Part shown: positions 1,947 through 58,226 of the stretch, piece after piece
Position numbering within the stretch: the stretch's first letter is position 1
Layout: each line of letters opens with the position of its first letter
Source: an uncultured Pseudomonadota bacterium
GTDB taxonomy: Bacteria > Pseudomonadota > Alphaproteobacteria > Rs-D84
Direction: 5' to 3'
NCBI GenBank assembly: GCA_947303585.1
Contig: CAMYYT010000002.1
Coordinates: forward strand, 2,326-66,325
DNA: 64,000 bases
The notes under the pieces: model-generated
The model's input: the letters and a program-made list of their open reading frames with translations, nothing else
What the model was told of the DNA's origin: nothing
Databases searched by the model: none
Position numbers and translations under genes: made by a program

Positions 1947-1959
1947 AGGTATAGAAAGC

Positions 1960-3951: not shown

Positions 3952-5199
3952 TTAACGAACGGATGCGCTAATATTTTGTGTGCTTTTACTTGTGGCGGAT
4001 GTTCCAGGATTTACGGTTTTAGGTTGTTCTGTCCTTATTCCACGAAGTCCCAATACACAATATTGAAAATCTTCTGGGTCGGTTTTAGACCAGCATTGTG
4101 AACCATTGTTGCCCATAACACCAAATCTTAATTGTTCTTCGCTTAATGTCACTGTGCACCTTTGGTAATTTGATGATGCACTGGTCCCAGTAAACGGACA
4201 ATCATATTGTCCTTGTTCAACAGAACTTTTCCAAAAGTTCCCCCCAGGACAGAATTTTTTTGGATTGCTGCATTTCTGTTGTTGAACACTATTTGCCGGC
4301 AAATAGTAACCCTTGGTAACTTTTATAGATGTTTCTACGCACTCCGTATGGTCAGCATTAGCTTTGGTTCCAATCGGGCATTTATCACACCCATCACCAT
4401 AACCATTTGCAACATAATGTTCATCATCAAAACCATGCTCACTTGTGCAGGCGTCTTTAGGTAAAAGCTTCCCTTGGTCTACGCCTGATGCTTTATGCCA
4501 ACCCCCAAGTTTTTCGGAACCCAAACAAACATATCCCGAAGGACAAGGTGCGCATTCTTCTGTGTCTGCAGGAAGGTACGAACCGGCTAAACATTTTATA
4601 GCTCTCTCAACACATTCTGTTTGAGCTGCGTTTGGTTCTGTCCCATCTGGACACGATTCCACACCCTGATCTTCATCTTTTGGTGTTACCTTTACTTTGG
4701 TTCCAGGGCAATAATAGTTTCTAAGAGCTGGGTCCGCTTTTTCGCAATCTAAACAAAAAACACTATCTTTACAGAACACACATTCACTTTTTCCCCTTGG
4801 TAAATAGGATCCTGGGTCGCATACCAACTCTTTATAGTAAACTTTATCATCAGTAAAAATTGATTTGTAATAACATTGATCCTTCCTGCTTGAGCCTGCA
4901 TCAGAATATGGAAAATCTGCAGGGCATAAACGCCAACCACCACCATGCGTACCCCAGCTAGGCCACCTGTTCGCGCATCCGTCTTCAAACTGGCCTATTG
5001 TAACAGCTTGGTTCCCCCCGCCCTCGCAATAACATCCCGGTTTACACATGTGCCGTTGAGTGTTTAGGCAGACATAACCCGCAGGTGCTTTTTTGTTATT
5101 GCTATTACAGTATGTTGCTGTTGCATACGATGGAACGACTTGTCCGGCCGACGCCATTGTTGCGATACCTAACATCAAAAATGTACGTTTTGTGAACAT
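3952..5199 (-). CDS. Secreted cysteine-rich repeat protein (furin/ephrin-receptor-like repeats); paralog of the giant protein at 41837-47821
   Basis: Signal peptide MFTKRTFLMLGIATMASA. Repeated C..G.YLP....C..CP.G..C modules and a CPADFPYSDAGSSRKDQCYYK motif also present in the 1994-aa protein. Confidence 0.7.
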   Translation of the reverse strand: MFTKRTFLMLGIATMASAGQVVPSYATATYCNSNNKKAPAGYVCLNTQRHMCKPGCYCEGGGNQAVTIGQFEDGCANRWPSWGTHGGGWRLCPADFPYSDAGSSRKDQCYYKSIFTDDKVYYKELVCDPGSYLPRGKSECVFCKDSVFCLDCEKADPALRNYYCPGTKVKVTPKDEDQGVESCPDGTEPNAAQTECVERAIKCLAGSYLPADTEECAPCPSGYVCLGSEKLGGWHKASGVDQGKLLPKDACTSEHGFDDEHYVANGYGDGCDKCPIGTKANADHTECVETSIKVTKGYYLPANSVQQQKCSNPKKFCPGGNFWKSSVEQGQYDCPFTGTSASSNYQRCTVTLSEEQLRFGVMGNNGSQCWSKTDPEDFQYCVLGLRGIRTEQPKTVNPGTSATSKSTQNISASVR

Positions 5200-23799: not shown

Positions 23800-24258
23800 A
23801 TGTTGCACAATATCTGTTTTTCGGGTATTGTGCAACTGATGCTAGAAAATATAAAGATTTATTCTTCTGATAAGTATTGGCAGCATATTTTTGCTGATTT
23901 GGGTGCAATTGTTGTCGATAATCAAAATATGGCAGACGTGGTCTTTGATGATATTGCAACAAATACGCCGGTTTCGGTTGATGATTTAAAAAAGCTGATT
24001 TTTGATTGTTTGGATAACCAAGATATAATCACGAATATTTTTGGTCGGTATATTATTTTACCAAATTTGCAACGCAAGGTCATAGTTTCACTGTATAAAA
24101 ACCCAAATATATCTATGCGAGAATTAAAAGAAAACCTTGGCTTTTTGCCAGACGTAACCACTCACACAGTTGAAAACGCGATTTATCAGTTAAGAAAAAA
24201 TTACGGACACGATTTTATACAAAACGACAACAGAAAATACAAAATTGGACACTTATAA
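23800..24258 (+). CDS. Putative transcriptional regulator with C-terminal OmpR/PhoB-type winged-helix domain
   Basis: LQRKVIVSLYKNPNISMRELKENLG...TTHTVENAIYQLRKNYG fits the trans_reg_C pattern. No receiver domain. Confidence 0.45.
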   Translation: MLHNICFSGIVQLMLENIKIYSSDKYWQHIFADLGAIVVDNQNMADVVFDDIATNTPVSVDDLKKLIFDCLDNQDIITNIFGRYIILPNLQRKVIVSLYKNPNISMRELKENLGFLPDVTTHTVENAIYQLRKNYGHDFIQNDNRKYKIGHL

Positions 24259-24913
24259 ATTATTATCTTTTGATAAAATCTCCAGCACCCAAGATTTGGC
24301 GCATGATTTAATCGCGCATGGAACTGCAACTAATAAAACTGTGGTTATGGCTTTGGCACAAAGTGCGGGGCGCGGCAGATACAGACGAACTTGGGTTTCT
24401 CATCATGGTAATTTATATGCTTCATTTATTTATAAAATATATGAGCGTGACCCAAAATTATCTTATGCTATCGCGGTGGCAATCGCAGAAACTTTGATTT
24501 CTTTTGGGATGGTGCCACAGATTAAATGGCCTAATGATGTATTAATAGACGGAAAAAAAATCAGCGGCGTTTTAATAGAATATTCTCAAAATTTTGTAAT
24601 TGTAGGAATTGGGATAAACATAAAAACTTGTCCGACTGTCAAAGAATACAAAACTACGAAAATACATAAATACAATCAAAATGTCGATACCAAAGATGTG
24701 TTAAATACTCTGATGAAAAAAATAGACAAATGGCGTAATGCAAATTTTTCTGTCGTTCGAGAACGTTGGATGGAACTAGCCGCAGGTCTTAATAAAACGA
24801 TACAATATCATGGTAAACCGGCAGAATTAATAGGTCTTAATGAAGATGGGGCTTTGGTGTTGCGCGAAAATACCAGATATATTTTAACATATGGTGATGA
24901 AATCAGTATTTAA
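24245..24913 (+). CDS. birA: Biotin--[acetyl-CoA-carboxylase] ligase (BirA, group I without HTH)
   Basis: SSTQDLA..ALAQSAGRGRYRRTWVSHHGNLYASF. Likely TTG start overlapping upstream gene. Confidence 0.8.
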   Translation: MDTYKLLSFDKISSTQDLAHDLIAHGTATNKTVVMALAQSAGRGRYRRTWVSHHGNLYASFIYKIYERDPKLSYAIAVAIAETLISFGMVPQIKWPNDVLIDGKKISGVLIEYSQNFVIVGIGINIKTCPTVKEYKTTKIHKYNQNVDTKDVLNTLMKKIDKWRNANFSVVRERWMELAAGLNKTIQYHGKPAELIGLNEDGALVLRENTRYILTYGDEISI

Positions 24914-24975
24914 AAGCGCTTGACTTTGATACGAATTTATGATATTACATAACACATCAAGAATGAAAATTCTGT

Positions 24976-24998
24976 CCGCCATCAAGGGCGGTTTTTTT
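24976..24998 (+). terminator. Rho-independent terminator after birA
   Basis: CCGCCatcaagGGCGG + TTTTTTT. Confidence 0.65.
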
Positions 24999-25065
24999 AT
25001 TCTTGTTTTTTGTTGCCGCGCGAATTGTCGTGCGGTTTTTTTTATTAACTAACACAGGTAAAATC

Positions 25066-25476
25066 ATGCAACTAGTTTTAATAAAAAATCCAGACGATAC
25101 ACAAAACATATCGTATAAATTAGCGCGAATCATATTTGCTGAAACCAAAGGTGTCTCTTTGCAATCTGTCGAAGCGATGGCTGCGATGATACATAATATT
25201 CATATTAAATATGGCAAATCTTTTGAAGACATTGCAACAGATAAAAATATTTTCGACTCTTTAAATCATTTTTCTCCGCGAAAAAAATTTTTATCTGTAG
25301 ATATAAACGACAGAAAATTTCAAATGTGTTTGCGAGTTGTTAAAACTATGTTGCATGGCCATTTGCGTGATTGTGTGTTTGGTGCGACTAAATTTCATCA
25401 CACAGATACGATGCCACAATGGGCAATTGCGCGCGGTTATATTTTTGAATGTGAAGACATACTTTATTATTTATAA
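25066..25476 (+). CDS. Cell wall hydrolase, SleB/Hydrolase_2 family (possible phage-derived endolysin)
   Basis: LARIIFAETKGVSLQSVEAMAAMIHN and C-terminal HHTDTMPQWAIARGYIFECEDILYY. RBS AGGTAA before ATG 25066. Confidence 0.65.
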   Translation: MQLVLIKNPDDTQNISYKLARIIFAETKGVSLQSVEAMAAMIHNIHIKYGKSFEDIATDKNIFDSLNHFSPRKKFLSVDINDRKFQMCLRVVKTMLHGHLRDCVFGATKFHHTDTMPQWAIARGYIFECEDILYYL

Positions 25477-25493
25477 ACAACAAAAGGAAAATT

Positions 25494-25685
25494 ATGAACA
25501 AAATAATCAAAGGCGGTTATTTACAAAATCGAAAAACTTATGTTGTATCAACAGTTGGTATTGTGTCTGCAATTGGTGCGTATCTGGTGGGCGATGCAGA
25601 TATATTCACAATGTTGCAAACTATATTTACATTGGGTGGTATCTATTTTCTTAAACAAGAATCTTCAACCAAAGGAAAAAAATAA
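25494..25685 (+). CDS. Small two-TM membrane protein (holin-like candidate)
   Basis: RBS AAAAGGAAA. Two hydrophobic helices, basic C-terminus. Immediately downstream of the cell wall hydrolase. Confidence 0.4.
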   Translation: MNKIIKGGYLQNRKTYVVSTVGIVSAIGAYLVGDADIFTMLQTIFTLGGIYFLKQESSTKGKK

Positions 25686-26341
25686 TGGAACAAATTCCAG
25701 AAAAATTTCTAGATGACAAAGGCGAATTAAATACATCGGCTTTGGTTAAATCATATTGCGAACTTGAAAAAAAGATGAGTAATATGATTCCTTTGCCAAA
25801 CGATGAAAGCGACGAAGCAACAAAACAAAAATTTAATCATGCAATTGGTGTGCCTGATAATGCAACAGATTATCCAACGAATCCGTTGTTCGAAGACGAA
25901 TCGGTTCGTGAAAAATTTCATGAAATTGGTTTGACTTCAAAACAAGTTGAACAAATTTATGCAATCGCTGAAGAATTTTTACAACCAACATTAAAAAATT
26001 TATTTCAACTACAAAATCAAACAAATGCGACAAATGAATTGAAAAAATTTTTTGGTGATGAAGAAAAAATGAATGATGCATTACGTGAAATAAATTCGTT
26101 TGGTGAAAAATATTTACCAAAAGATGCGTTTGATGAATTATGTGCTACACCCCAGGGAATCCAAGGCATATACAAGATGATGCAATCTCTAGAACCTGAT
26201 GTTTTAACCAATAAAAACACAACAGAAATTTTAAGTGATGATGTTTTGCGTGATATGATGCGTAATCCAAAATATTGGCGAGATCATGATCCAGAATATG
26301 TAAGAAAAATTGAAAATGGTTTTAAAAAATTATACTCATAA
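25685..26341 (+). CDS. Hypothetical acidic protein (possibly phage scaffold-like)
   Basis: ATG overlaps upstream stop (taATGg). No recognisable catalytic motif. Confidence 0.45.
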   Translation: MEQIPEKFLDDKGELNTSALVKSYCELEKKMSNMIPLPNDESDEATKQKFNHAIGVPDNATDYPTNPLFEDESVREKFHEIGLTSKQVEQIYAIAEEFLQPTLKNLFQLQNQTNATNELKKFFGDEEKMNDALREINSFGEKYLPKDAFDELCATPQGIQGIYKMMQSLEPDVLTNKNTTEILSDDVLRDMMRNPKYWRDHDPEYVRKIENGFKKLYS

Positions 26342-26440
26342 TTAATTTTTATTCTTTACTATTTGTTTTCTTTCGTATAAAATATAAAACAAGAACAAAA
26401 AAAATTTTGTTCTATCCGAAAACATAGAAAGGAGAGAATT

Positions 26441-26734
26441 ATGTTCGGCTTAAAGAAAAAATGTGGTTGCACAAAAACAGCTGCTAAACCAGCTGCTGCA
26501 AAAAAACCAGTTGCTAAAAAAGCACCTGCAAAAAAACCAGCTGCGAAAAAAGTAGCTGCAAAAAAACCAGTTGCAAAAAAACCAGCTGCAAAAAAAGTAG
26601 TTGCAAAAAAACCAGCTGCTAAAAAAGTAGTTGCAAAAAAACCAGTTGCTAAAAAAGCACCTGCAAAAAAACCAGTTGCTAAAAAAGCACCTGCAAAAAA
26701 AACAGCTGCTAAAAAAGTAGTAAAGAAAAAATAA
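26441..26734 (+). CDS. Histone H1-like lysine/alanine-rich nucleoid protein
   Basis: 13 or more AKKPAAKK-type repeats. Strong RBS GAAAGGAGAGAA. Terminator follows. Confidence 0.75.
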
Positions 26735-26756
26735 TAAATAATTAATTGATTATTTG

Positions 26757-26788
26757 TCCCCAAAATCAAAGGTTTTGGGGATTTTTTT
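26757..26788 (+). terminator. Rho-independent terminator
   Basis: CCCCAAAAtcaaaggTTTTGGGG + TTTTTTTT. Confidence 0.7.
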
Positions 26789-27110
26789 TATGATAAATTT
26801 TTCAGTTAGATGAATTATCAAGTCTAACTGAATTTTTTATTGGATAATCCATTTTTGTGGACCCGAATTAAGATTTTGTTTTTTTGGCGCATTTATTTTG
26901 CATAACCATTAATCAAAATTAAGGCTTTTATTTTTAACTTAAACAAAAAGGATTTCTTATGTCTATGTCTGTAGACCAAGTGTTTATAAAACAATTTGAA
27001 GCAGATGTCCATTTGGCATATCAACAGTTTAATATATAACAAGATTATTTTTAAAAATAAAAATTTATTTGTGATCGTATTCAAATTTAATTATTTGCGA
27101 AGATTTATAA

Positions 27111-27248
27111 ATGCTAAACGCCTGCGATACCCAACGAATCAATCTGCGAGAAAGATTACGAGAACTAGATTTTATTCTTTCCCCCCATGGTTCTATGATT
27201 TATATAGGAACACCGCACACAAAAGATACTATATATAAAACAAATTAA
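27111..27248 (+). pseudogene. Remnant of the terminase large-subunit ATPase domain (coupling-motif region)
   Basis: 45-codon ORF ..DFILSPHGSMIYIGTPHTKDTIYKTN resembles T4 gp17 ..KIIITTTPNGLNHFYDIW. The matching C-terminal nuclease domain lies at 30529. Confidence 0.35.
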
Positions 27249-27886
27249 TCTTCGGATGTTAAGAACGTTCGCAATTTGTTAAGAACATCTTTGCCTTGTT
27301 CTCCGAACATTGGTAAAAATGTTTCATATTCTGGCATATCTGCTTGAATTTGGGCGCGATTGCGTTCGGTTAATGTTTCCGATAATAATTCTTTTGCGGA
27401 ATACCAAATTTGATAAGCCTTGTCTGCCCTGATAACATCTTGCCATTTTGCAGACAGTTCAGCATCAGAAGTCAATGCTGCCTTTATATCTCTTGCCCAA
27501 TCGTTGCCAAACTTTTGTACAAAAGGTAATTTTTTTATTGCGATCAAACTTTCTTGTGTCGGTTCAAATTTATCCAAAGCTGCTTTTAGTTTGGAAATTT
27601 CGTCAGCGGTCAAAGAGAAAACCACTTCTTGATCAGACATTGTTCCGCCATAAGGCAATAAATCTTTATCAATAGTATTTATTGGGGTTTTGCCAGAACG
27701 TAAATTATTTATATGAGCGACCAATTTCTTTCCCGTAGGAAGATTTTCAAGTTCTGTTATAATCTGTTCGCTGTTGGCTTCTTCCAAAAATACTTTGTTA
27801 ACAGCAGTCCACCCGCCGTCAATTACGTGTTCTTGGCGGTAAAGGTTTAATAACCGTTGTGCTACTATGTGTGCTTGTTGTGGCAT
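27245..27886 (-). CDS. Hypothetical protein
   Basis: 213-aa ORF, first gene of the minus-strand block inserted between terminase fragments. Confidence 0.45.
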   Translation of the reverse strand: MPQQAHIVAQRLLNLYRQEHVIDGGWTAVNKVFLEEANSEQIITELENLPTGKKLVAHINNLRSGKTPINTIDKDLLPYGGTMSDQEVVFSLTADEISKLKAALDKFEPTQESLIAIKKLPFVQKFGNDWARDIKAALTSDAELSAKWQDVIRADKAYQIWYSAKELLSETLTERNRAQIQADMPEYETFLPMFGEQGKDVLNKLRTFLTSED

Positions 27887-27910
27887 GGTTCTCTCTCCTG
27901 CATTTAACGA

Positions 27911-28918
27911 TTATTGCATGACAATCATAACAACCTTGTGCATTGTTTTGCCAGTAATTTTTTCTTCTGGGTTAGATATATGACCATATATTTTACCACG
28001 AGAATCTTGGCGAACAACGACAATTTGTGCTTCTGTTGTGTCATCGGATTTCATCTTTGAAAAATCTGCATCTATACATACAGCCAAATCACCAACCTTA
28101 GGTTCTATATTAGCATCAACAAAGATGTATGCAGATTCTGGGATAAAACCAGATAATCTTTTAGAATTTGGTATCACGGCATAAACCCCGCTGCGTCCTT
28201 CTAATGCAGCAGGCGCAACAATCATAGTTTCGTCAGATTTCTTTAATTTCAAGCCTTTGTCCAAAGGTTTGCCAAACACAGGAACCAATTTTTTACGCGC
28301 ATTATCATACAATTGCGCGCCATATAAACCGCCGTGTATATCCAACCCGGATACAGGGTTCCCAGGTTCCAATACAGACTTTACGCGTTCTGTGACTTTG
28401 TTTATTTGTTTAGTTAATTCACCAGCATTATACAATTTGGTGATTTCGTCGAACAGTTGCGAAGAAGTATATCCAAAAGCCTTGGCCAAAACATCAATTT
28501 CATCTTCGTAAACTTCGCGTTGTCCGACTTCGATTTTATGGTACACAGACAAAGTCATATTTGCAGCTTTTGCGGCATCTGCAATAGTTTTTTCACAACG
28601 TTGACGTATTTTACGCAACCCAGAACCAAAAATCTTTAAACCGCTATCCTCATTGTCATTCAAACGGCGTTTAATTTCGTTTTGCCAATTTTGAGCAACC
28701 GCATCAGATTCATGAATAAATATGTCTGATAATTTGCATCCCAGTATGGTGCACACATTTAACAGTTGTTTCTGGTTAAGACGGCGAACGCCTTTTTCTA
28801 TCTTGGAAACCGCAGACAAGGATAAATTAGCGCGTCTAGCCAGTTCAGTCATTTTCATCCCTTTCGCAGCACGAATGTTACGAATGTTATTAGGAAAAAT
28901 GATTTCTTCTTGTGCCAT
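27911..28918 (-). CDS. Dual-HTH (XRE-type) transcriptional repressor with C-terminal S24 LexA/CI-like peptidase domain
   Basis: Two HTH_XRE units (MTELARRANLSLSAVSKIEKG.. and IADAAKAANMTLSVYHKIEVG..) then S24-like fold (VPVFGKPLDKG..SGFIPESAYIFVD..GDLAVC..IVVVRQDSRGKIYG). Confidence 0.7.
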   Translation of the reverse strand: MAQEEIIFPNNIRNIRAAKGMKMTELARRANLSLSAVSKIEKGVRRLNQKQLLNVCTILGCKLSDIFIHESDAVAQNWQNEIKRRLNDNEDSGLKIFGSGLRKIRQRCEKTIADAAKAANMTLSVYHKIEVGQREVYEDEIDVLAKAFGYTSSQLFDEITKLYNAGELTKQINKVTERVKSVLEPGNPVSGLDIHGGLYGAQLYDNARKKLVPVFGKPLDKGLKLKKSDETMIVAPAALEGRSGVYAVIPNSKRLSGFIPESAYIFVDANIEPKVGDLAVCIDADFSKMKSDDTTEAQIVVVRQDSRGKIYGHISNPEEKITGKTMHKVVMIVMQ

Positions 28919-31393: not shown

Positions 31394-32623
31394 ATGCAAA
31401 AAAATCTTATGCAATTATATAAACGCGCATTAAATGAACGCGAAGTATGGATGAGCAGATGGAAATCAGCTATGCGATATACGATTCCCGCGGACGACGC
31501 AGATATCGCAACACTTTTTGATGCTACTGCGTCAGACGCTGTTGATAATTTGGCTGCGTCTATGTATTCATTGCTGACGCCCCCAGAATCTTTGTGGATA
31601 AATTTAGTCCGTGAAAGTGATTTATCACCAAATGCTGAAATTGCGACATCTGTTTTGCGGGCGCATTTGAATGATTCTAATTTTTATACAAGCATTCATC
31701 AATGTTATATAGATTTAGTAGTTCTTGGGACAGCGTGTTTGTTTATGGCAGAAAATCCGATAGGCTCTTCATCTGCGTTTTCTTTTACTGCAATCCCAAT
31801 GACAGATATCGCTATATTACCAGGTGCAATCTTCCATACAACTTCGTTGCCAGCCTGTGATTTGATGGAAAAATATCCTAATATAACCTTGCCGTCGCAT
31901 ATGAAAGATACAATAAAAAACAATCCCGAAACCCCAATCAGATTAGTTCAATCTTTGATAGGTAAAGATTTTACAGCTTGGATAGATGTAGGTGGTGATT
32001 TTGAAAACAATATTGTAGCGCGTGGAACATTTGAAACCAATCCATATATAATCTTTCGTTGGTCTTTGGTAAGCGGTGAATTATACGGTCGCGGCCCGGT
32101 ATTGCGCGCGCTGCCAGATATAAAAACAGCAAACAAAGTTGTAGAATTAGTTTTGAAAAATGCAACTATCGCAGTTAGCGGAATTTGGCAAGCTGATGAT
32201 GATGGCGTTATTAATTTATCTAATATAAATTTAACACCTGGCGCAATAATACCAAAAGCGGTAGGCAGTTCTGGTTTAACACCGCTAGCAAGTGGCGCTG
32301 ATTTTGATGTGTCGCAAATAGTGTTGCGTGATTTACGAGACAGAATAAGACATACTTTATTGGCAGACCGGCTAGGTCTTTTGTCAGACAAAGAAATGAC
32401 TGCCACAGAAATATTGGCTCGCAATTCTGATATGGTTCGAATTTTGGGGGCAACATATGGACGCCTTTTGCACGAATTTATAAGACCTTTGTGTGAACGC
32501 GGACTTCAAATATTATCTCGTCGTGGATTGATAGACAAAATATCTTTACATAGCGATGCAGAATTAAAGTATATCGCACCAATTGCACAAATGGCGCGTG
32601 AAGAAATGTTAATAGAAGGATAA
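31394..32623 (+). CDS. Phage portal protein
   Basis: Immediately downstream of the terminase fragment. 409 aa with length and composition typical of HK97/GTA-type portals. Assignment by context plus weak similarity. Confidence 0.5.
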   Translation: MQKNLMQLYKRALNEREVWMSRWKSAMRYTIPADDADIATLFDATASDAVDNLAASMYSLLTPPESLWINLVRESDLSPNAEIATSVLRAHLNDSNFYTSIHQCYIDLVVLGTACLFMAENPIGSSSAFSFTAIPMTDIAILPGAIFHTTSLPACDLMEKYPNITLPSHMKDTIKNNPETPIRLVQSLIGKDFTAWIDVGGDFENNIVARGTFETNPYIIFRWSLVSGELYGRGPVLRALPDIKTANKVVELVLKNATIAVSGIWQADDDGVINLSNINLTPGAIIPKAVGSSGLTPLASGADFDVSQIVLRDLRDRIRHTLLADRLGLLSDKEMTATEILARNSDMVRILGATYGRLLHEFIRPLCERGLQILSRRGLIDKISLHSDAELKYIAPIAQMAREEMLIEG

Positions 32624-41806: not shown

Positions 41807-41812
41807 TAAATA

Positions 41813-41838
41813 AAAATCGCCCATTTGGGCGATTTTTT
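41813..41838. terminator. Bidirectional rho-independent terminator
   Basis: AAAATCGCCCAtttgGGCGATTTTTT. Also overlaps the stop of the giant minus-strand gene. Confidence 0.7.
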
Positions 41839-44800
41839 AATTACCAGTTCGTATTTGCCATTTGATTTTATAACCTGTCCGGGCAGTTGCGCTGCTTGGT
41901 ATAGTCAAATGTTCATCATAATAACATTGATTGGTTTCCAGATTATTATTTCCATCATACCAAGTAATGCTGTAAGAATTCGGATTGCAAGGTGGTGCAG
42001 AATTTGGACCATAACTTCCAAACAAAGCGGTTTCGTATTCGCCATTTGAATTTTCTGGTTGGAAAAGAACTTGTATGCACCGTTCTGTGCAAGTTGTCGC
42101 ACAGCTGTTTTGGTCTCCAAAAGCATCCCAATACACCCAATTTGTATCACTGACACTCACTGCAGACGAACCATTAAGATGATATCCGGTCATATTGCAC
42201 CAACATTCTTTGCCAACGCTTAATGTATTAAATGTTCCATTGGTTTTCGGTTCAAACAAATCACCAGATGTAGAATTGCATGACGAACGTCCTTGGATTT
42301 TTGTTCCATTACTGTACACCAATTCAAAAGTTCCTTTGTTCAAACTCGTTGCATCGCCACCAAAGAATTCACCCGTTCCGCTTTGGGTTGAACTATCATT
42401 AGATTTAAATTTGGTTGCAGACAAATTCAAATTTCTAGATGCGTTTATGTAATTAACCAACGGACCATCTGACCAGGGGGTTGTTGCAGTATAACCAGCA
42501 TTGCAGGTAAATGAAGATATAGCACATGCGCCGATTGATTCTGTTTGGGCAACTGTTCCTGGATCGTATATTCTGGTTGCGGCAGTACTGTTTGCATATG
42601 TCACATTCGCACCACGCACAGGATTTATTACCGAACATAAAAGTGTCGCAGGAGATCTGTAGCAGAAAGCAACATCCCTGCTGCCAGCGTCAGAATATGG
42701 GAATTCGCTTGGGCAATCAGATAAACCTTGGGCAAAACTTACTTTTTCCCAAGTTCCGCCAGGGCACCAATGGTTTTGGGGACATGTTGCACACACTGTT
42801 GCATTTGCCGGTAAATATTCACCAGGTGCGCAAGTATACGTTGGTACCGGTGCACCACAAGATTTATTCATCCCAAATGAACCAAATTCGGGTGCTAAGG
42901 CAAGCTGCATGGCACATGCGTTTGCACATTTTTTTTCACAGATACTTATATCAATAAAGTCAGTTTTGAATAGTCTTTCTGCGGGATTTACGGATACTGT
43001 ATTGCCGCTGCCAATTTTATAACTTGTTAAATCGCAATTACAATCATATTTTCCGTTGGCATTAACAGCACACGAAGCGGTTCCGGTAATATCCAATTCA
43101 TTCCAATATACTAACCTGAATGTTCCATTTGTCATGCCGGTTGAATCTCCATAATTCCCGTTAGCACCGCTGCTGTTGTCACTACTGCCATCTATTGCAC
43201 GGTAATAAATATTATGGTTAGAAGTCGAGCTTGGCATACCATACAATGGCGATTCATAATTTGCCAAAGGTCCATCAGTTCCAACTAAAACTTCGCCTGC
43301 ATTACTGCAAGTTGCACCAGTCACCGCACAACCACCAAATGGGGTAACCACACTTCCGCCACCATAATAGTTTCTTTGTGTCACAGGACTGTTCGCATAA
43401 GATACAGATGTCGTATTTAATATTTTCACAAGCGTCGAACAGTCTACGCCTGTTTTATCGTAATAACAAAATGTAACATCTGTCGTTCCTGCATCAGAAG
43501 AAGGATGGTCATCAGGACAAGATTCTCTGCCGTAAGGTTTGTTGGCTGAGATATTGCTGGCAGGTACATCGGTAAAGCCTGGACAATAATAACCAGCCTC
43601 ACAAAGTGTACAAGTTGTTGAATTTGCCGGAAAATAATACCCGGGATCGCAAGAATAGGTTTGTTCTACGCATGCCATCTGTTCACCGTATTCCCCAATA
43701 ATATTGGTTCTGACCGTAGTGTTAGACATAAAATAGGCAACGCATTGTTCTGCGCAATTATCTGTGCAAGTAGCCGGGGACCGTATTGGTACATACACAG
43801 AATTCGCATCGTTAACAGACGTGCTGCCATTACCAATGTCATAACCCGTCATTTGACACCAGCAATACGTATCTGTGCCACCGGCTTTTGCCCCCCCAGA
43901 ATTACCAGATTTAGTTTTGGGAGTGGCTTCTTTATATTCACCAGCGCTGGTACCAGCTGTTGAATTACATGTGGCATCAAGATATATTTGGGTACCATCA
44001 CTCCACGTGATAACGGCAGTTCCATCTGTCATACCGGTTGAATCGCCAAATCCGTTTGCAACACCACTGTTTGCGCCACTGTTACCACTTGCTGCCCTAT
44101 AAAGAGTGCTACTCTTTGAAATACTGTGTGCCTGGTTGACATAGTTTGCCAATGGGCCATTTGATGATGGTTCTTTGACATATCCAGTATCACAAGACAA
44201 ACTGATAATTTCACATGCGCCAATATCTTCCGTTTCTCGACCGGCGTCACTATAAGTGATAGAGCCACTTGATGAATTTGCATAAGTCGCTGTCCCGTTT
44301 GATACAGGATTTATTTTGGAACAAGAATAACTTCCGCTGGTCGAATAACATTGTTGTAGAAAACTTGAACCTGCGTCAGAGTTTGGATATTTAACATTAC
44401 ACGCGATTTTGCCTTGATCATCACTGTCGTTATATGGATAAATTCCACCCGGACAATAGTAGTTTGCCGGACATCCGATGCAGGATGTTGCGTTTTTCGG
44501 TAAATATTGCCCCGCAGGACAAATTATTTGCATAGTTGCCGAACATTCGCCAGAACTGGCCGTCCCAGGTAAAGAATATGGTGTAGAAGTCGGACAAGGG
44601 TACAAACCTTGGTCATCGTCTTCGTCCAGTTCAACATCTGTGACACCTGGGCAATAATAATCTGATGGACAAAGCGCGCAATCTTCGGAATCAGCAGGTA
44701 AATAATAACCTGCATCACAACTGTATGTGAATCCTTGGGGACCTTTGGCACCGTATTTAAAATTACCACCATTACAAGATTTCGCCTTTGGGCAAGATTG

Positions 44801-47800
44801 ACATTTTGTACTTTTTTCTGGCAAATATTCGCCTGCCTCACATTTCGCAGCATAACAATCATCGGCACTTTTTGCACCCAAATCAGACAAAGGGTTGTTT
44901 GAATCTACTTTGGAACATTCGGACAGTCCTTGGTCTTCTTTGTCGTTAAAAGATAATCCTTTGGCACCACTGCAAAAATACCCTTCCCAACAAGGGTCAC
45001 ATTGTGTGCTGCCAGCTTTTAAAAGTTCACCTTCGGCACAATTAATTGTTGCGCTGCATTGTGTGGACGAAGTGGCACCCGCCGGTGAAAACGGTGTTGA
45101 TGTATCGCATTTCGTTATACCTTGGGTTGAAGTGTTATTGGTAAATGTCCCCCCAACACAATAATTTCCCGACGGGCATATGCTGCATACAAATGTTCCG
45201 CCCCCCAGATACGTTCCTGCCAAACAAACAAGGTTTGCCTTGCAATCGCTGCTATCGTCAGAACCAGATTCCGAGAACGGGCTTGTTGTTGGGCATTTTT
45301 CTATACCTTGGTCGTTTGTTTCGCTATATGAATATTTCCCCCCTTTGCAATAAGAACCGGATGGACAAATGTCGCATTTATCAAAGCCCATTGGCAAATA
45401 ATACCCAGTCTCGCAATCAATAGTGTCTGTCTTGGCATAACAATCACTTTCGCCTTTTGCACCCGGGTTTGAATAAGGTGCTGTTGTTGGGCATTGGCTT
45501 AAGCCCTGATCTTTATCCTGACCTTTGTAAAATCCGCCACCTTTGCAATAATATCCTCCCAAACATTCTGCGCATTCATAATCTTTATCTTTTGGCAGAT
45601 ATTCCCCAGCGTTGCAAGTGATGTCGTATATCGTGGCATAACAATCACTTTCACTTTTTGCACCCGGGTTTGAATAAGGTGCTGTTGTTGGGCATTGGTC
45701 TAAGCCATGTTCTTTGTCATCTGGGGTCCATGTGCCACCTTTGCAGTAATATTTTATCCAACATGTTTCACATTTATTGTCCTTGGATAAAAATTCCCCA
45801 GCGCTGCAAGTGATGTCGGTTGTCTTGGCATAACAATCACCATCGCCTTTTGCACCTTTATCAGAATAAGGTTTGTCATCTGGGCATTGGGTTAAACCTT
45901 GGTGGTTTTTATCGTCATACGAATAAGGGCTTTTTGTTCCATCACAATAATAGCCTTCCCAACAAGATTCACAATCTGTTTTTTCTACGGGCAAAAATTC
46001 ACCTTCGGCACAATTAATTGTTGCACTGCATTGTGTGGACGAAGTGGCACCCGCCGGTGAAAACGGTGTTGATGTATCGCATTTCGTTATACCTTGGGTT
46101 GAAGTGTTATTGGTAAATGTCCCCCCAACACAATAATTTCCCGACGGGCATATGCTGCATACAAATGTTCCGCCCCCCAGATACGTTCCTGCCAAACAAA
46201 CAAGGTTTGCCTTGCAATCGCTGCTATCGTCAGAACCAGATTCCGAGAACGGGCTTGTTGTTGGGCATTTTTCTATACCTTGGTCGTTTGTTTCGCTATA
46301 TGGATATTTTCCCCCTTTGCAATAAGAACCAGCAGGACAAGTTCTACAATCGGAGTATGAAAAGGCCGGCAAAAATTCACCCGCTTTACATGTGACCGTG
46401 TCAAAGCAAGAATTTTCATCCGAAGCGCCGATTTTTGAGTAAGGTGCTGTTGTTGGACATTTTTCTATACCTTGATCTTTGGTATTATCAACCGTAACAC
46501 CCTTAATACCACTGCAATAAGAACCAATCGGACAAATGACGCATTTGTTATCGCCTTTGGGTAAATAAGACCCAGTGTCACAACCAATAGTGTCTGTCTT
46601 GGCATAACAATCACCTTTGCCTTTTGCACCTTTATCAGAATAAGGTGTTGCCTCTGGACATTGGTTTAAGCCATGTTCTTTGTCATCTGGGGTCCACGTG
46701 CCACCTTTGCAGTAATAATTTGCCCAACATGTTTCACATTTATTGTCCTTGGATAAAAATTCCCCCGCACCGCAAGTGATGTCGGTTGTCTTGCCATAAC
46801 AATCACCTTCGCCTTTCGCACCTTTATCAGAATAAGGTGCTGTTGTTGGGCATTGGGTTAAACCTTGGTCGTTTTTATCATCATACGAATAAGGGCTTTT
46901 TGTTCCATCACAAAAATATCCTTCCTGACAATCTGTGCACTGAATACCACCTTTCGCCAAAAATACACCGGCACCACAATCAATTGTCGCGCTGCATTGT
47001 GTGGACGAAGTAGCGCCGTCCGGTGAAAACGGTGTCGCGGTATCGCATTTCGTCATACCTTGGGTTGCGGTGTTATTGGTAAATGTTCCGCCACTGCACC
47101 AATAACCAGCCGGACAAGTTGAACAGGTTAGCATGCTTTCCCCCAGATACGTTCCTGCCAAACAAACAAGGTTTGCCTTGCAATCGCTGCTATCGTCAGA
47201 ACCAGATTCCGAGAACGGGCTTGTTGTTGGACATTGTTCTATACCTTGGTCGCCTGTTTCACTATATGGGTATTTTCCCCCTTTGCAATAAGAACCTGCA
47301 GGACAAGTTTTACAATCAGAGTATGAAAAGGCCGGCAAAAATTCACCATTCTTACATGTGGTCGTGTCAAAGCAAGAATTTTCATCTGAAGAGCCGATTT
47401 TTGAGTAAGGTGCTGTTGTTGGGCATTTTTCTATACCTTGGTCTTTGGTATTATCAACCGTAACACCCTTAATACCACTGCAATAAGAACCAATCGGACA
47501 AATGACGCATTTGTTATCGCCTTTGGGTAAATAAGACCCAGTGTCACAACCAATAGTGTCTGTCTTGGCATAACAATCACCTTTGCCTTTTGCACCTTTA
47601 TCAGAATAAGGTGTTGCCTCTGGACATTGGTTTAAGCCATGTTCTTTGTCATCTGGGGTCCACGTGCCACCTTTGCAGTAATAATTTTCCCGACACGTTT
47701 CGCATCCGCCTTCTTTACTTAAAAATTCCCCCGCGTCACAAGTGATGTCGGCACCAAATGCATTAAATGTAAACAAACTAAACAAAGCCAAAAGTGGCGT

Positions 47801-47821
47801 TAACAGTATGATTTTACGCAT
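41837..47821 (-). CDS. Giant secreted cysteine-rich repeat protein (1994 aa), with furin-like/ephrin-receptor-like (GCC2_GCC3-type) repeats in the N-terminal half and CWC-motif modules in the C-terminal half
   Basis: Signal peptide MRKIILLTPLLALFSLFTFNAFGA. Dozens of C..G.Y(L/C)....C..CP.G.YC.GG and QG(I/L).(Q/K)CP...P(Y/F)S..G modules. Three about 322-aa super-repeats. Confidence 0.8.
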   Translation of the reverse strand: MRKIILLTPLLALFSLFTFNAFGADITCDAGEFLSKEGGCETCRENYYCKGGTWTPDDKEHGLNQCPEATPYSDKGAKGKGDCYAKTDTIGCDTGSYLPKGDNKCVICPIGSYCSGIKGVTVDNTKDQGIEKCPTTAPYSKIGSSDENSCFDTTTCKNGEFLPAFSYSDCKTCPAGSYCKGGKYPYSETGDQGIEQCPTTSPFSESGSDDSSDCKANLVCLAGTYLGESMLTCSTCPAGYWCSGGTFTNNTATQGMTKCDTATPFSPDGATSSTQCSATIDCGAGVFLAKGGIQCTDCQEGYFCDGTKSPYSYDDKNDQGLTQCPTTAPYSDKGAKGEGDCYGKTTDITCGAGEFLSKDNKCETCWANYYCKGGTWTPDDKEHGLNQCPEATPYSDKGAKGKGDCYAKTDTIGCDTGSYLPKGDNKCVICPIGSYCSGIKGVTVDNTKDQGIEKCPTTAPYSKIGASDENSCFDTVTCKAGEFLPAFSYSDCRTCPAGSYCKGGKYPYSETNDQGIEKCPTTSPFSESGSDDSSDCKANLVCLAGTYLGGGTFVCSICPSGNYCVGGTFTNNTSTQGITKCDTSTPFSPAGATSSTQCSATINCAEGEFLPVEKTDCESCWEGYYCDGTKSPYSYDDKNHQGLTQCPDDKPYSDKGAKGDGDCYAKTTDITCSAGEFLSKDNKCETCWIKYYCKGGTWTPDDKEHGLDQCPTTAPYSNPGAKSESDCYATIYDITCNAGEYLPKDKDYECAECLGGYYCKGGGFYKGQDKDQGLSQCPTTAPYSNPGAKGESDCYAKTDTIDCETGYYLPMGFDKCDICPSGSYCKGGKYSYSETNDQGIEKCPTTSPFSESGSDDSSDCKANLVCLAGTYLGGGTFVCSICPSGNYCVGGTFTNNTSTQGITKCDTSTPFSPAGATSSTQCSATINCAEGELLKAGSTQCDPCWEGYFCSGAKGLSFNDKEDQGLSECSKVDSNNPLSDLGAKSADDCYAAKCEAGEYLPEKSTKCQSCPKAKSCNGGNFKYGAKGPQGFTYSCDAGYYLPADSEDCALCPSDYYCPGVTDVELDEDDDQGLYPCPTSTPYSLPGTASSGECSATMQIICPAGQYLPKNATSCIGCPANYYCPGGIYPYNDSDDQGKIACNVKYPNSDAGSSFLQQCYSTSGSYSCSKINPVSNGTATYANSSSGSITYSDAGRETEDIGACEIISLSCDTGYVKEPSSNGPLANYVNQAHSISKSSTLYRAASGNSGANSGVANGFGDSTGMTDGTAVITWSDGTQIYLDATCNSTAGTSAGEYKEATPKTKSGNSGGAKAGGTDTYCWCQMTGYDIGNGSTSVNDANSVYVPIRSPATCTDNCAEQCVAYFMSNTTVRTNIIGEYGEQMACVEQTYSCDPGYYFPANSTTCTLCEAGYYCPGFTDVPASNISANKPYGRESCPDDHPSSDAGTTDVTFCYYDKTGVDCSTLVKILNTTSVSYANSPVTQRNYYGGGSVVTPFGGCAVTGATCSNAGEVLVGTDGPLANYESPLYGMPSSTSNHNIYYRAIDGSSDNSSGANGNYGDSTGMTNGTFRLVYWNELDITGTASCAVNANGKYDCNCDLTSYKIGSGNTVSVNPAERLFKTDFIDISICEKKCANACAMQLALAPEFGSFGMNKSCGAPVPTYTCAPGEYLPANATVCATCPQNHWCPGGTWEKVSFAQGLSDCPSEFPYSDAGSRDVAFCYRSPATLLCSVINPVRGANVTYANSTAATRIYDPGTVAQTESIGACAISSFTCNAGYTATTPWSDGPLVNYINASRNLNLSATKFKSNDSSTQSGTGEFFGGDATSLNKGTFELVYSNGTKIQGRSSCNSTSGDLFEPKTNGTFNTLSVGKECWCNMTGYHLNGSSAVSVSDTNWVYWDAFGDQNSCATTCTERCIQVLFQPENSNGEYETALFGSYGPNSAPPCNPNSYSITWYDGNNNLETNQCYYDEHLTIPSSATARTGYKIKWQIRTGN
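44900..47760. repeat. About 970-bp near-identical tandem repeats (about 3 copies) inside the giant gene
   Basis: Opposite-strand ORF fragments beginning 45145 and 46117 encode identical 62-aa peptides. A third copy sits near 47137. Period 966-972 bp. Confidence 0.8.
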
Positions 47822-47981
47822 TTTTTTCTCTTTCCTTCGTGTTTAAAACAGTATTACTTTGTTTTAAGTGTAGAAAATTTTTTATTATTTGCGCAAGTAT
47901 TTTTTTCTATTTTTATTTCTTGCTTTTGTTTTTTTTCAAATCTATAATCACGGCATCTATTTATATGAAAGGGGGCGAAGA

Positions 47982-48728
47982 ATGAAATTATCTGAAAAGT
48001 TTAAAAATTTACCAACAATTTGGGTTGTGATTTTGGCTTTTGGTGTTGCGCTGGGTGGTTTTTTTATTGGTAATGGTGTTTATAAATCTTTGGCGCGTCG
48101 TACTGTTACGGTCAAGGGTTTGGCTGAAATGGATGTAATCGCTGATACTGCCATTTGGAATATAAAATTCAATCGTGTTGGTGGTGATCTGGTCAAGGTT
48201 CAATCTGCTGTGGATGAAGACCTTAATAAAACACATAAATTCTTAACTGATAACGGATTTGAAGAAAACGAAATTCAAAATTTGCGCGTGACAGTGCGTG
48301 ATAAATATGCGGGGTATAGTGATGCCCAACGCAAAGATGCTGACAGTAATGACAGATATGTTATCGAAACTGGTGTTATGGTGCGTTCAAATTCTGTAAA
48401 TTTGGTTGATGGTGTTTCGCGCAAAATGGGTGATTTAGTGCGCCAAGGTGTGACTGTGACCGAAGATTATGCGGGACCAATTTATGTCTTTAATGGACTT
48501 AATGATATTAAAATAAAAATGATAGAAGAAGCAACGAAAAACGCAACTGCCGCGGGGGAACAGTTCGCCAAAGACGCTAATGCAAAATTGGGTAAGATTC
48601 AATCTGCTAACCAAGGATTGTTCAGCATAACTGCGCGCGACCAAACAGATGCTTGGTCTGATAATGAAAAGCAATCTATTAATAAACGCGTCCGCGTGGT
48701 ATCTACAATTACATTTTATTTAAGATAA
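47982..48728 (+). CDS. SIMPL-domain periplasmic protein (DUF541; BP26/Omp28-like)
   Basis: RBS GAAAGGGGG before ATG 47982. N-terminal TM anchor, DUF541-like core. Confidence 0.65.
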   Translation: MKLSEKFKNLPTIWVVILAFGVALGGFFIGNGVYKSLARRTVTVKGLAEMDVIADTAIWNIKFNRVGGDLVKVQSAVDEDLNKTHKFLTDNGFEENEIQNLRVTVRDKYAGYSDAQRKDADSNDRYVIETGVMVRSNSVNLVDGVSRKMGDLVRQGVTVTEDYAGPIYVFNGLNDIKIKMIEEATKNATAAGEQFAKDANAKLGKIQSANQGLFSITARDQTDAWSDNEKQSINKRVRVVSTITFYLR

Positions 48729-52715: not shown

Positions 52716-53753
52716 TTACAATGTTGGTGTTAAAATATCTTGCATCTTTTTTATTTCTGCTGCGTTTTTGTTAAATAGACCTGTTGTTTTCATTTTTGCC
52801 AGTTCTATTTTTAATTGCTTTAACATCGTGCTTTGTTTGTCGTTTGTTGCTTGCAAACGATTCATTTCTTCAACCAATTTTTCGTTTTTATATTGAAGTT
52901 CTTCTTTCTCTTTACTCGTTTCGTCTAACATATTGTTGTATTGGTTGCTAATAGAGTCTTTTTCACGTGTTATTTCTTCTATACTATTACGAGCTGTTTG
53001 TAATTGTTGTTTTGTTTCTACAAGCTCTTCTTCCAAGGATTTTTGTGTGTTCGCCATGTATTCCGGGATGTTGGCAGACAAAATTTTATTAATATCAAAT
53101 TCTTTTTTTATTAGTTTTACATAATCTGGTTCTGATTCATCCAAAGGCTGTATTGCAAATTTTGCACTATCAGAAATGTTTTTCAAATTTTCAGGATTTG
53201 GAAAATCTTTGTGCATTTCTTTATCTAATTCTTGTTTACACATTTCGATTACTGTACGAATAAGGTTTTTATCACGAGAGTTCAAAGCAAGTTGAGACTT
53301 GAAACTTAGTGGCGCCAAAGGATTATTAATAATTAAAGTGCTGACAATTTTTGCATTTTTTTCACCAATTCTTTTTGAATCTGGTGTAATTTGTCGCAAA
53401 ATACTATATTGATTTTTTTCATCAAACATAGGCAGTTTGTTTAATACCAGCAATACAGAATTTTCATCGGGTTTTTCATCAAAGATACATTTAATAAAAT
53501 TCCAATAAGCCTTGAAATCTTGGGCATATTGTGATTCTGGGTTTTTATAGCAATTATATATATGTTTCCAAATATTGTTATATGTCGCATCTTGCGTATC
53601 CGTGTAACGTTCTAGTTCTTTTTCGTTCGACGGACCGTTATATGCATTTTTTCTGAATAATTCATCAATATATTCAACAAAACCTAAGGTGCGGTCAGTA
53701 CCAAATAAATCTTTGGTAAACTTATTTTTATCAAAAGTTACTTCCTGTGTCAT
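52716..53753 (-). CDS. Hypothetical protein with C-terminal coiled-coil (no signal peptide)
   Basis: 345-aa ORF. C-terminal about 90 aa heptad-rich (LEEELVETKQQLQTARNSIEEITREKD...). Confidence 0.5.
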   Translation of the reverse strand: MTQEVTFDKNKFTKDLFGTDRTLGFVEYIDELFRKNAYNGPSNEKELERYTDTQDATYNNIWKHIYNCYKNPESQYAQDFKAYWNFIKCIFDEKPDENSVLLVLNKLPMFDEKNQYSILRQITPDSKRIGEKNAKIVSTLIINNPLAPLSFKSQLALNSRDKNLIRTVIEMCKQELDKEMHKDFPNPENLKNISDSAKFAIQPLDESEPDYVKLIKKEFDINKILSANIPEYMANTQKSLEEELVETKQQLQTARNSIEEITREKDSISNQYNNMLDETSKEKEELQYKNEKLVEEMNRLQATNDKQSTMLKQLKIELAKMKTTGLFNKNAAEIKKMQDILTPTL

Positions 53754-57020: not shown

Positions 57021-58226
57021 TTGATGAAAGTGCTTTTTACATCGATTTTTGCGCTGTTCTTGGCGACTTCAGCGTGGGCCACAGGCGAATTATCGGCGCC
57101 TGCCACTTGTAATACCACGGATCTAGGGGTCAGTTCTGGTACATTAAATGTAGATTTGGTATGGGAAGCAAACAGAATAAACACATCGTGGTATACTGGA
57201 TACGGCGATAATACACAAATAACGGGTGCAAACATCCCAACTTCTTGTAATTACGATTCGGCAATATCTTTGCCTGCTGCGCCATCGCGTCCAGGGTATA
57301 ATTTTGTTGGTTGGACATTAAAATGTTCTTTGCCACCGTTAGATTCGTCAGATACGGGAACAGATTACGGTTATATAAATGGGGACAGCCCGGAACCTTA
57401 TGCAGATAATGCACAAACATATGGGTTAACACAGCCACAAACTTGGGGTGCGACGTTTGTACCTGGAAAAATGACGGGAAGTGCGATGTGCAGTGCTTAC
57501 GCTGGAAATAATCATAATTATGCATGGGGCGGAACATCTTCTGATTGGACGGCAGATACAGCAACTTTGACTGGGACTAGTGGAAGTGCTACCTATTGTT
57601 GGTGTCGCGTTGATGCCTTTACACCAACCAGTGGGCAATGGTGTGATTTTTCACCACAAAAATGGGTGTTTAACCACGGGTTTAATTCGACAACGGGCTG
57701 TTCAGAGGCTTGCGCATCAGAATGCACACAATCATTGCGTGGTATATTAGAATTCCGTGCCGCAGTATACGCCGCCGCTACGCCTGTTTCTGTATGTCGG
57801 ATACCTGCTGCAGTCGCGGCACAAGATATAGGTACTGCAATGGCAGCTAAAAGCTTTTTGGGTGACGCATATAACAATACCTATGGTGGTGCGACACCTG
57901 AAACATATGGTCTGACTCAGGCTGGGCAATGGGGTGTGTCGTGGCAGACTGGTGACAAAGTTGTAGGAGAAGCAATGTGTAGTGCTTCTTCAAGTGGGGT
58001 TCCTGTTGCTTCTACTGGAAATGAAGCTGCGAATTGTTGGTGTAAAGCAACTGGTTATATTTCCGCGAGTAATTCACAGTGTTCTTTTTCTGATTCTTCT
58101 TGGGTCTTGATAAATAATAATGGTGCGGAATATTGTTTACAATGGTGTACATATGAGTGTGCTAACTATGTTAGAACATGGGAAGATATTCGTGTGATGA
58201 TATTAAACGGTCTTTTTGCTCAATAA
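57021..58226 (+). CDS. Secreted cysteine-rich protein sharing the CWC module with the C-terminal half of the giant protein
   Basis: Signal peptide MMKVLFTSIFALFLATSAWA. Motifs ATYCWCRVDAF...QWCDFSPQKWV and AANCWCKATGYIS...CSFSDSSWV parallel TYCWCQMTGYDIG / ECWCNMTGYHLNG in the giant protein. Confidence 0.65.
   Translation: MMKVLFTSIFALFLATSAWATGELSAPATCNTTDLGVSSGTLNVDLVWEANRINTSWYTGYGDNTQITGANIPTSCNYDSAISLPAAPSRPGYNFVGWTLKCSLPPLDSSDTGTDYGYINGDSPEPYADNAQTYGLTQPQTWGATFVPGKMTGSAMCSAYAGNNHNYAWGGTSSDWTADTATLTGTSGSATYCWCRVDAFTPTSGQWCDFSPQKWVFNHGFNSTTGCSEACASECTQSLRGILEFRAAVYAAATPVSVCRIPAAVAAQDIGTAMAAKSFLGDAYNNTYGGATPETYGLTQAGQWGVSWQTGDKVVGEAMCSASSSGVPVASTGNEAANCWCKATGYISASNSQCSFSDSSWVLINNNGAEYCLQWCTYECANYVRTWEDIRVMILNGLFAQ

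Follow-up and report, generated by a model that had tools for sequence, protein, structure and literature searches.

What kind of protein does a rumen bacterium make from a single open reading frame (ORF) of 1994 amino acids (aa) that carries 149 cysteines, and why should the gene differ so strongly between close relatives? We address these questions for a giant cysteine-rich protein gene in a 64,000-nucleotide stretch of contig CAMYYT010000002.1 (hereafter the window), from assembly GCA_947303585.1 of an uncultured alphaproteobacterium. An earlier note, made from the sequence alone, had described it as a giant secreted protein of eukaryote-like cysteine-rich repeats. The ORF is uninterrupted over its 1994 codons, and a database protein (P0001) is 100% identical to its product. 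Taken together, our analysis points to a rod that is exported by Sec, is braced by disulfides, ends in three contact domains and acts as a hypervariable surface fibril or adhesin, an interpretation to which we give a probability of about 0.55.

An intact secreted protein with a periodic cysteine array

The N-terminus divides by inspection into the n, h and c regions of a Sec signal peptide (MRK, IILLTPLLALFSLFTF and NAFG/AD), a form that is kept in the orthologs P0002, P0004, P0009 and L001, so the signal peptide proposed in the earlier note stands. No lipobox was seen in it on inspection. Cysteine makes up 7.5% of the protein, in which Gly, Ser and Thr are also abundant, and it recurs with an almost exactly repeating spacing, C-x12/13-C-x2-C-x5-C-x16-19-C-x16-C. 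Segmentation by this spacing gives 19 full six-Cys modules of 62-68 aa plus one half module, rather than the dozens of modules of about 45 aa that had been proposed; the consensus proposed alongside them (C..G.Y......C..CP.G.YC.GG // QG..QCP...PYS..G......CY) agrees with that of our alignment. The periodicity is also better than chance: 139 Cys pairs lie 62-68 residues apart, compared with 75.7 +/- 8.2 in 2000 shuffles (maximum 105).

A hidden Markov model (HMM) of the module finds 17 copies in aa 28-1100 and one heading each of three C-terminal units, with i-Evalues of 1e-8 to 1e-14 for full stalk copies and 6e-6 for the half module. These copies are organized into a higher-order repeat of five modules (322 aa, 966-972 nucleotides) that is present about three times, and internal DNA repeats are 99-100% identical over 300-nucleotide stretches. 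The protein has 20 CxxC motifs. Cysteine numbers are even throughout, with six per full module, four in the half module and ten in each of the C-terminal domains described below, and the one unpaired Cys of the protein sits in its tail.

Fold class of the six-cysteine module

Our comparisons support the assignment of the predicted module fold to the class of TNFR and ephrin-receptor cysteine-rich domains (CRDs), since a sequence match to ELAPOR1, relatives that carry PF07699 repeats, profile-profile alignment by hhalign, the AlphaFold (AF2) model and Foldseek all agree. Of the classes named in the earlier note, TNFR/ephrin-receptor is therefore upheld at the level of fold and not at the level of Pfam membership. 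The models that it had suggested stayed below their cut-offs: Ephrin_rec_like (PF07699, cut-off 23.1 bits) gave no full-protein match at E <= 1, and five single modules reached 10.3-15.1 bits (E 0.02-0.64); TNFR_c6 (PF00020, cut-off 29.4 bits) reached at best 11.8 bits (E 0.35) on one module; and the Furin-like and VSP (variant surface protein) models gave no match at E <= 1 on the whole protein or E <= 10 on single modules. The sole curated model above threshold was DUF7631 (PF24634), with 35 bits against a threshold of 27 (E 2e-8) over three stretches. Its best stretch covers only profile positions 4-18 of 50, which correspond to the CxxCPxGxYCxGG core, so that the overlap with this uncharacterised family extends to about 15 of 50 model positions; the model also matches the orthologs and P0012. 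Weak matches to DOMON, MiiA-motif, YDG and AP205 models in the Pfam and NCBIfam scans were treated as noise.

The link to Ephrin_rec_like proteins runs through intermediate homologs. P0017, a distant homolog of the query at E 7e-12, has 15 true PF07699 repeats (288 bits), and in P0012 DUF7631 and PF07699 occur together; the two proteins suggest a chain of homology from the giant protein to true PF07699 repeats. Alignment of the module profile with P0017 by hhalign gave 86% probability (E 4.9e-6) and needed a 13-column gap (11-12 residues) in the middle loop. A phmmer search of PDB sequences with the whole protein found no match, and the module profile matched ELAPOR1 there (E 0.002). Like Ephrin_rec_like, ELAPOR1 and TNFR proteins, the giant protein appears to consist of small disulfide-laddered hairpins with the pattern C-x2-G-x-Y ... 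C-x2-C-P-x-G-x-Y. Its module is longer (62-68 aa), however, and PF07699 has no counterpart of its second half, QG..CP..PYS..G......C; moreover, unlike PF07699 proteins, the giant protein is bacterial and strings 17.5 modules into an uninterrupted array.

The AF2 model of three consecutive modules (aa 92-281) has a pLDDT of 95.2 and is made of short hairpins and loops, a secondary structure on which we rejected the beta-solenoid that the earlier note had put forward for checking. The best Foldseek match to this model is the Chlamydomonas extracellular filament protein MST1 (PDB 8wa2, 8tx1; E 9e-4, probability 0.99, 21% identity over 222 columns), with low TM-scores (0.28), as expected for flexible rods. 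It is followed by TNFR2, TNFR1, RANK, CrmE, ELAPOR1 and EphA2, the TNFR matches being weak and those to EphA2 and EphB having E > 0.2; these matches agree with the fold class, with scores kept low by the small size of the module. The Cys-rich tandem of MST1 has been described as highly similar to the Eph receptor CRD; its disulfides, spaced about 11 A apart, form a ladder and lend robustness to the filament (PMC10602792). MST1 is, by contrast, a eukaryotic glycoprotein that polymerises on cilia and contains nine immunoglobulin (Ig) domains as well as a polyproline helix, and the giant protein has no Ig or hydroxyproline region.

The C-terminal units and a new cysteine-rich domain

Residues 1101-1950 consist of three homologous units, each a six-Cys module followed by a domain of about 220 aa with ten conserved cysteines that include a C-W-C / C-x-C motif, which we refer to as the CWC domain. 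The CWC/W-containing modules that had been noticed in the C-terminal 900 aa or so thus correspond to three such units over about 890 aa. In the AF2 model of aa 1664-1994 (pLDDT 84.4, pTM 0.77; the tail alone poorly predicted), the CWC domain is mostly beta with two C-terminal helices. A Foldseek search of solved structures with it returned nothing at E < 0.5, so no solved relative was detected, and neither the 2025 Pfam copy nor NCBIfam 20 recognised it. PF27842, which is listed in the precomputed annotation of P0001 and absent from the Pfam copy searched, may already describe the domain.

The CWC domain is new, in having no match in the model libraries searched, and it is widespread. An exhaustive search of 1.84 billion representatives with its profile recovered 561 clusters at E <= 1e-3 and 146 at E <= 1e-10, compared with only 3 proteins in a word-indexed search. 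Many cluster members are small secreted proteins of 130-450 aa, and for many the match is confined to the C-terminal half of the profile, which forms a unit of some 110-130 aa with the motif GL..G.W.V....G.V.G.A.CS...CWCKMT.Y...WVF...C...CA..C...FR.A.FG. All of the named members that we looked up come from metagenome-assembled genomes (MAGs) labelled "Alphaproteobacteria bacterium". Several CWC-domain proteins also carry Flg_new repeats, a combination that the giant protein appears to share: over its last 52 aa it shares 42% identity (E 2e-14) with the tail of P0024, a region that is Flg_new-positive. This homology connects it to Flg_new surface proteins, although its own repeat is partial and divergent and the Pfam model (PF09479, cut-off 27 bits) gave no match to the giant protein.

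A hypervariable gene between conserved neighbours

The order PBP (penicillin-binding protein), ligA, SIMPL, giant gene, optional small ORF, tRNA-His/Ala, frr, uppS, cdsA, rseP, bamA is common to the window and to the loci L001, L002 (which encodes P0002) and L006/L007 (P0006), that is, to four or more rumen assemblies. In the window, tRNA-Ala/His, uppS, cdsA, rseP, bamA and probably frr (assigned by synteny with L002/L007) lie on one side of the giant gene, and a SIMPL-family gene, ligA and a class A PBP gene on the other. The flanking proteins share 85-98.6% identity with their counterparts in the window; for LigA, for instance, the value is 97% in L006, 93% in L001 and 89% in L002. The giant proteins, in contrast, measure 1994 aa in the window and 2494, 2730 and 1601 aa in the other loci, with stalks of about 12 to over 40 modules.

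Sequence identity is distributed unevenly along these proteins. Over aa 1-349 the window protein is 74% identical to the L001 / P0004 type and about 40% identical to the P0005 / P0006 type; over the three C-terminal units the relation is reversed, with 31-34% identity to the former and 52-75% to the latter (61-75% when the better of the two is taken). In the P0006 genome the flanks are nevertheless 96-99% identical to the window. Because the orthologs diverge in identity and length while their flanks stay so similar, the giant gene is a recombinant mosaic that evolves far faster than its surroundings, and its near-identical internal 300-nucleotide repeats are a plausible substrate for recombination. 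The small ORFs that other genomes carry between the giant gene and the tRNA pair, and that are absent from the window, are a further sign of rearrangement at the locus. In L002 (14354-14918) they are a GIY-YIG nuclease fragment and a 119-aa ORF, and in L006 (11033-11617) and L007 (6018-6602) a 194-aa ORF.

The host and the origin of the gene

The nearest genome match is the sheep-rumen Alphaproteobacteria MAG RGIG6783, and other relatives are cattle-rumen and ruminant-gut assemblies, in line with the host-associated organism that had been suspected. Elsewhere in the window are lpxI and the genes of a TolC / HlyD / MacB-type pump. As indicated by its BamA, LpxI and TolC-like genes, the organism is a diderm with lipopolysaccharide and peptidoglycan. 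There is no sign that it is an endosymbiont, a lifestyle to which the earlier note had alluded; the genome keeps BamA, LpxI, PBPs and the MacAB-TolC-type pump.

At 0.43, the G+C content of the giant gene exceeds that of its surroundings (about 0.38-0.40), and the excess comes entirely from second codon positions (GC2 0.54). Its G+C at third positions (GC3, 0.32) equals that of the neighbours and its codon choice is similar, on which grounds we rejected a recent horizontal transfer and saw no sign of contamination by eukaryotic DNA. The modules are thus eukaryote-like in fold and in literature precedent, and show no sign of having been acquired recently. Ephrin_rec_like domains have been viewed as an invention of eukaryotes, and transfer has been invoked for the rare cases in bacteria (PMC6993872). 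The present case bears on whether modules of this type are true eukaryotic inventions.

A putative surface fibril and competing explanations

The best-supported interpretation is that the giant protein is exposed on the cell or released from it and is subject to diversifying selection, its role being that of a fibrillar adhesin or a component of the coat. We propose that the Sec signal peptide would direct the chain into the periplasm, where 148 of the 149 cysteines would pair to give about 74 disulfides. The N-terminal 1140 residues would then form 17.5 tandem mini-domains of the TNFR / ephrin-receptor-CRD type and, with them, a long, rigid, protease-resistant disulfide-ladder rod that serves as the stalk; it is the fold class and the even Cys count per module that suggest both this geometry and the pairing. 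Following passage across the outer membrane, and with one end presumably anchored, the C-terminal 890 residues (three units of module plus CWC domain and the partial Flg_new repeat) would be the likely contact part and may bind a ligand or the cell envelope. Diversifying selection by the host, protist grazers, phages or competitors might then account for the mosaic variability. The earlier note had called the product a surface or secreted host-interaction protein: secretion is borne out by the signal peptide, and the architecture and variability argue for surface exposure.

Bacterial fibrillar adhesins share with the giant protein a signal peptide, a long stalk of tandem repeats, distinct terminal domains, near-identical internal DNA repeats and a repeat number that varies between strains. 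Their known stalks, however, consist of Ig-like, cadherin-like or similar beta-sandwich domains without disulfides, and their known anchors (LPXTG, the retention module of type I secretion systems (T1SS), the autotransporter barrel) are absent from the giant protein. Several observations weigh against our interpretation. Pfam and NCBIfam searches found no autotransporter barrel, two-partner secretion (TPS), RTX/T1SS or LPXTG feature, and with no lipobox either, the protein is without a recognisable anchor or export module of the fibrillar-adhesin kind; nor was a known adhesive or lectin domain found in it. Reliance on about 74 disulfides also fits awkwardly with the strongly reducing conditions of the rumen, and no Dsb gene was seen among the approximately 40 of 55 window ORFs (>= 150 aa) that were scanned. 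Finally, all sequences come from short-read metagenome assemblies, in which repeats could distort copy number.

More speculatively, the protein might represent a new class of surface fibril in rumen Alphaproteobacteria, with a disulfide-ladder stalk and a CWC-fold tip, in which a single recombination-hotspot locus reshuffles stalk length and head type for attachment to, or evasion of, a eukaryotic partner such as a rumen ciliate or the host epithelium. We offer this wider scheme tentatively, as an idea more doubtful than sure. Stalks of disulfide-ladder design are otherwise known from eukaryotic receptors and protist filaments.

The variability could instead serve evasion rather than binding, if the protein were part of a protective, antigenically variable coat whose rods shield the cell from proteases, grazers, phages and secretory antibodies. 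The analogy is with Giardia, a gut protist whose Cys-rich variant surface proteins may shield the cell in the same way. A hypervariable, mosaic locus, several family members per genome, a high content of Cys, Thr, Ser and Gly and a gut habitat would all suit a coat of this kind. Nonetheless, we consider it unlikely, in that the Pfam model of the Giardia proteins has no match, there is no transmembrane or lipid anchor, and no switching mechanism is visible at a locus with a single gene and no invertible promoter seen. The three distinct C-terminal domains, moreover, suggest a specific interaction.

The swapping of C-terminal regions between orthologs that retain their N-terminal stalk type, together with the small variable ORFs 3' of the gene (GIY-YIG in L002, the 194-aa ORF in L006/L007), recalls contact-dependent competition by polymorphic toxins, in which a variable C-terminal effector would be carried to adjacent cells on the stalk. 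Such a function is improbable, given that Pfam and NCBIfam detect no toxin, Rhs, PT-TG, TPS or pre-toxin domain, and that the CWC domain occurs three times internally as well as in small stand-alone secreted proteins, unlike a toxin tip. In the window, furthermore, the gene is followed immediately by tRNA genes and not by an immunity-like ORF. Less probable still is a role of the cysteines in binding metal (Zn/Fe) or buffering redox, which would make the protein a metal or thiol sink, in the periplasm or outside the cell, under the reducing conditions of the rumen. The many CxxC motifs, the anaerobic habitat (a paralog lies beside nrdD/nrdG) and the lack of a Dsb gene in the scanned part of the window are compatible with this, but the confident models match disulfide-stabilised folds (TNFR, Eph CRD, MST1), the spacing and even number of cysteines per module correspond to nested disulfide modules, and the His/Cys ligand pattern typical of Zn ribbons was not seen. 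As for an assembly artefact, whether a rumen-protist fragment joined to a bacterial contig or a repeat-driven chimera, the eukaryote-like modules (Ephrin_rec_like being taken as eukaryotic; PMC6993872), the 99-100% identical 300-nucleotide repeats in a short-read MAG and the mosaic of N- and C-terminal parts count for very little. In at least four independent assemblies the gene is intact and flanked by housekeeping genes of bacteria; its ribosome-binding site and terminator are bacterial, it matches its neighbours in GC3 and codon use, and its mosaic breakpoint separates domains each of which is well conserved in assemblies other than this one.

Giant repetitive surface proteins are a known kind in bacteria. 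In the literature that we searched, no description was found of a stalk of TNFR / Eph-CRD-like six-Cys modules or of the CWC domain, and no mention of DUF7631, PF24634 or PF27842; publications on PF07699 are almost all eukaryotic. The core of the module is already catalogued by Pfam, as a domain of unknown function (DUF), and as this is the sole match and no literature on it was found, the view that no characterised bacterial family matches the protein holds. Should the surface-fibril interpretation hold, disulfide-ladder rods can serve as the framework of giant bacterial surface proteins in place of the usual Ig-like beta-sandwiches, and a strict gut anaerobe invests in some 74 extracytoplasmic disulfides. 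The locus combines extreme variation within a clade with adjacent housekeeping genes that are 85-99% conserved, and could be used as a handle on how individual rumen strains interact with the host, with grazers and phages and with particles. For the CWC domain, although it is spread over 561 clusters, there is no solved structure, described function or library match. We regard this domain and the hypervariable locus as the most useful leads.

Gene signals and features of the window

The coordinates of the gene, its signals, its domains and its relatives are collected in Table 1. Sigma-70-like matches, such as the candidate promoter, are no more numerous in the giant-gene region than in shuffles. 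The terminator-like hairpin has a run of A on one side and of T on the other and abuts the 3' end of the opposite-strand tRNA-His; it may be a shared terminator for the transcripts of the giant gene and the tRNA, and an automatic terminator scan did not list it. The only RNA elements found flanking the giant gene are the two tRNAs.

Table 1. Positions of the giant Cys-rich protein gene, its signals and domains, and two related genes in the window.
Feature	Position (nt)	Strand	Basis or remark
Giant Cys-rich protein gene	41837..47821	-	Complete ORF, 1994 aa, stop codon included
Candidate sigma-70-like promoter, TTGGTA-17-GATAAT	47987..48015	-	Consensus match only
Shine-Dalgarno-like AAGGAAAGAG, purine-rich	47828..47837	-	Read from sequence; 6 nt 5' of ATG, GGA core about 11 nt upstream
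Signal peptide, aa 1-23, MRKIILLTPLLALFSLFTFNAFG, putative cleavage AFG/AD	47753..47821	-	By inspection
Stalk, 17 full and one half tandem six-Cys modules of 62-68 aa, aa 28-1166	44324..47740	-	Cys spacing, module HMM
First five-module repeat copy, 322 aa / 966 nt, aa 28-349	46775..47740	-	
Second five-module repeat copy, aa 350-671	45809..46774	-	Per-module identity to first copy 72-97%
CWC domain 1, aa 1158-1387	43661..44350	-	hmmsearch with A4 profile, i-Evalue 7e-78; alignment
Six-Cys module heading unit 2, aa 1391-1457	43451..43651	-	Cys spacing, module HMM
CWC domain 2, aa 1452-1658	42848..43468	-	hmmsearch, i-Evalue 1.5e-63
Six-Cys module heading unit 3, aa 1664-1729	42635..42832	-	AF2 model residues 1-60, pLDDT 91-97
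CWC domain 3, aa 1720-1948	41978..42664	-	i-Evalue 2e-77; AF2 pLDDT about 85-97
Partial Flg_new-like (Listeria-Bacteroides) repeat, aa 1943-1994	41840..41995	-	
Intrinsic-terminator-like hairpin TCGCCC-AAAT-GGGCGA, then TTTTTATTT	41808..41832	-	Read from sequence; abuts tRNA-His
Small paralog, 415 aa, signal peptide and about five degenerate six-Cys modules	3952..5199	-	Module HMM, E 5e-26
Related gene, 401 aa, signal peptide, Flg_new repeat and two CWC C-terminal half-domains	57021..58226	+	

The multi-member family anticipated in the earlier note is represented in the window by two further genes. The 401-aa protein matches Flg_new in Pfam (27.5 bits) and the CWC profile in two stretches (E 2.7e-22), and its gene resembles the giant gene in an unusually high GC2 (0.57). 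The 415-aa paralog gave no Pfam match. Its gene is convergent, at a distance of 32 nucleotides, with genes for a tripartite pump (20-3920, + strand) that comprise a MacB-type permease, an ABC ATPase, an HlyD-family adaptor and a TolC-like factor, the last truncated by the start of the window. MacAB-TolC pumps move periplasmic peptides across the outer membrane, and a link between this pump and export of the Cys-rich family would be pure speculation.

Further relatives lie outside this locus. A paralog of the P0007 type is found at a different locus in L003/L004 (12012-17898), beside nrdD/nrdG and more Flg_new-repeat proteins, a setting in keeping with anaerobic life and with surface-protein genes being clustered. 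The distant relatives P0011, P0013, P0014 and P0015 have similar six-Cys modules and end in a different conserved Cys-rich domain (CG.C.N.Y..NGE..VSS....C.I.SC...G.L..L..N.C...C....DETG...W......C...C..GY..W) that is absent from the window protein.

Other regions of the window hold features of separate interest. An ORF at 31394-32623 (+) strongly matches the portal family, the head-to-tail connectors of phages (PF12236, E 3.5e-78), and nearby are a stretch of 32-35% G+C (24000-28000) and a double helix-turn-helix regulator (27911-28918); the region around the portal ORF is probably a prophage or its remnant. A 345-aa ORF rich in Lys, Glu and Asn (52716-53753, - strand), coiled-coil-looking and with no Pfam match, has the PBP gene on one side and an LPG_synthase_TM-family gene on the other, in a stretch of 33% G+C. 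At 19339-20298 (- strand), an ORF encodes a type II/IV secretion ATPase domain (T2SSE, E 3e-22).

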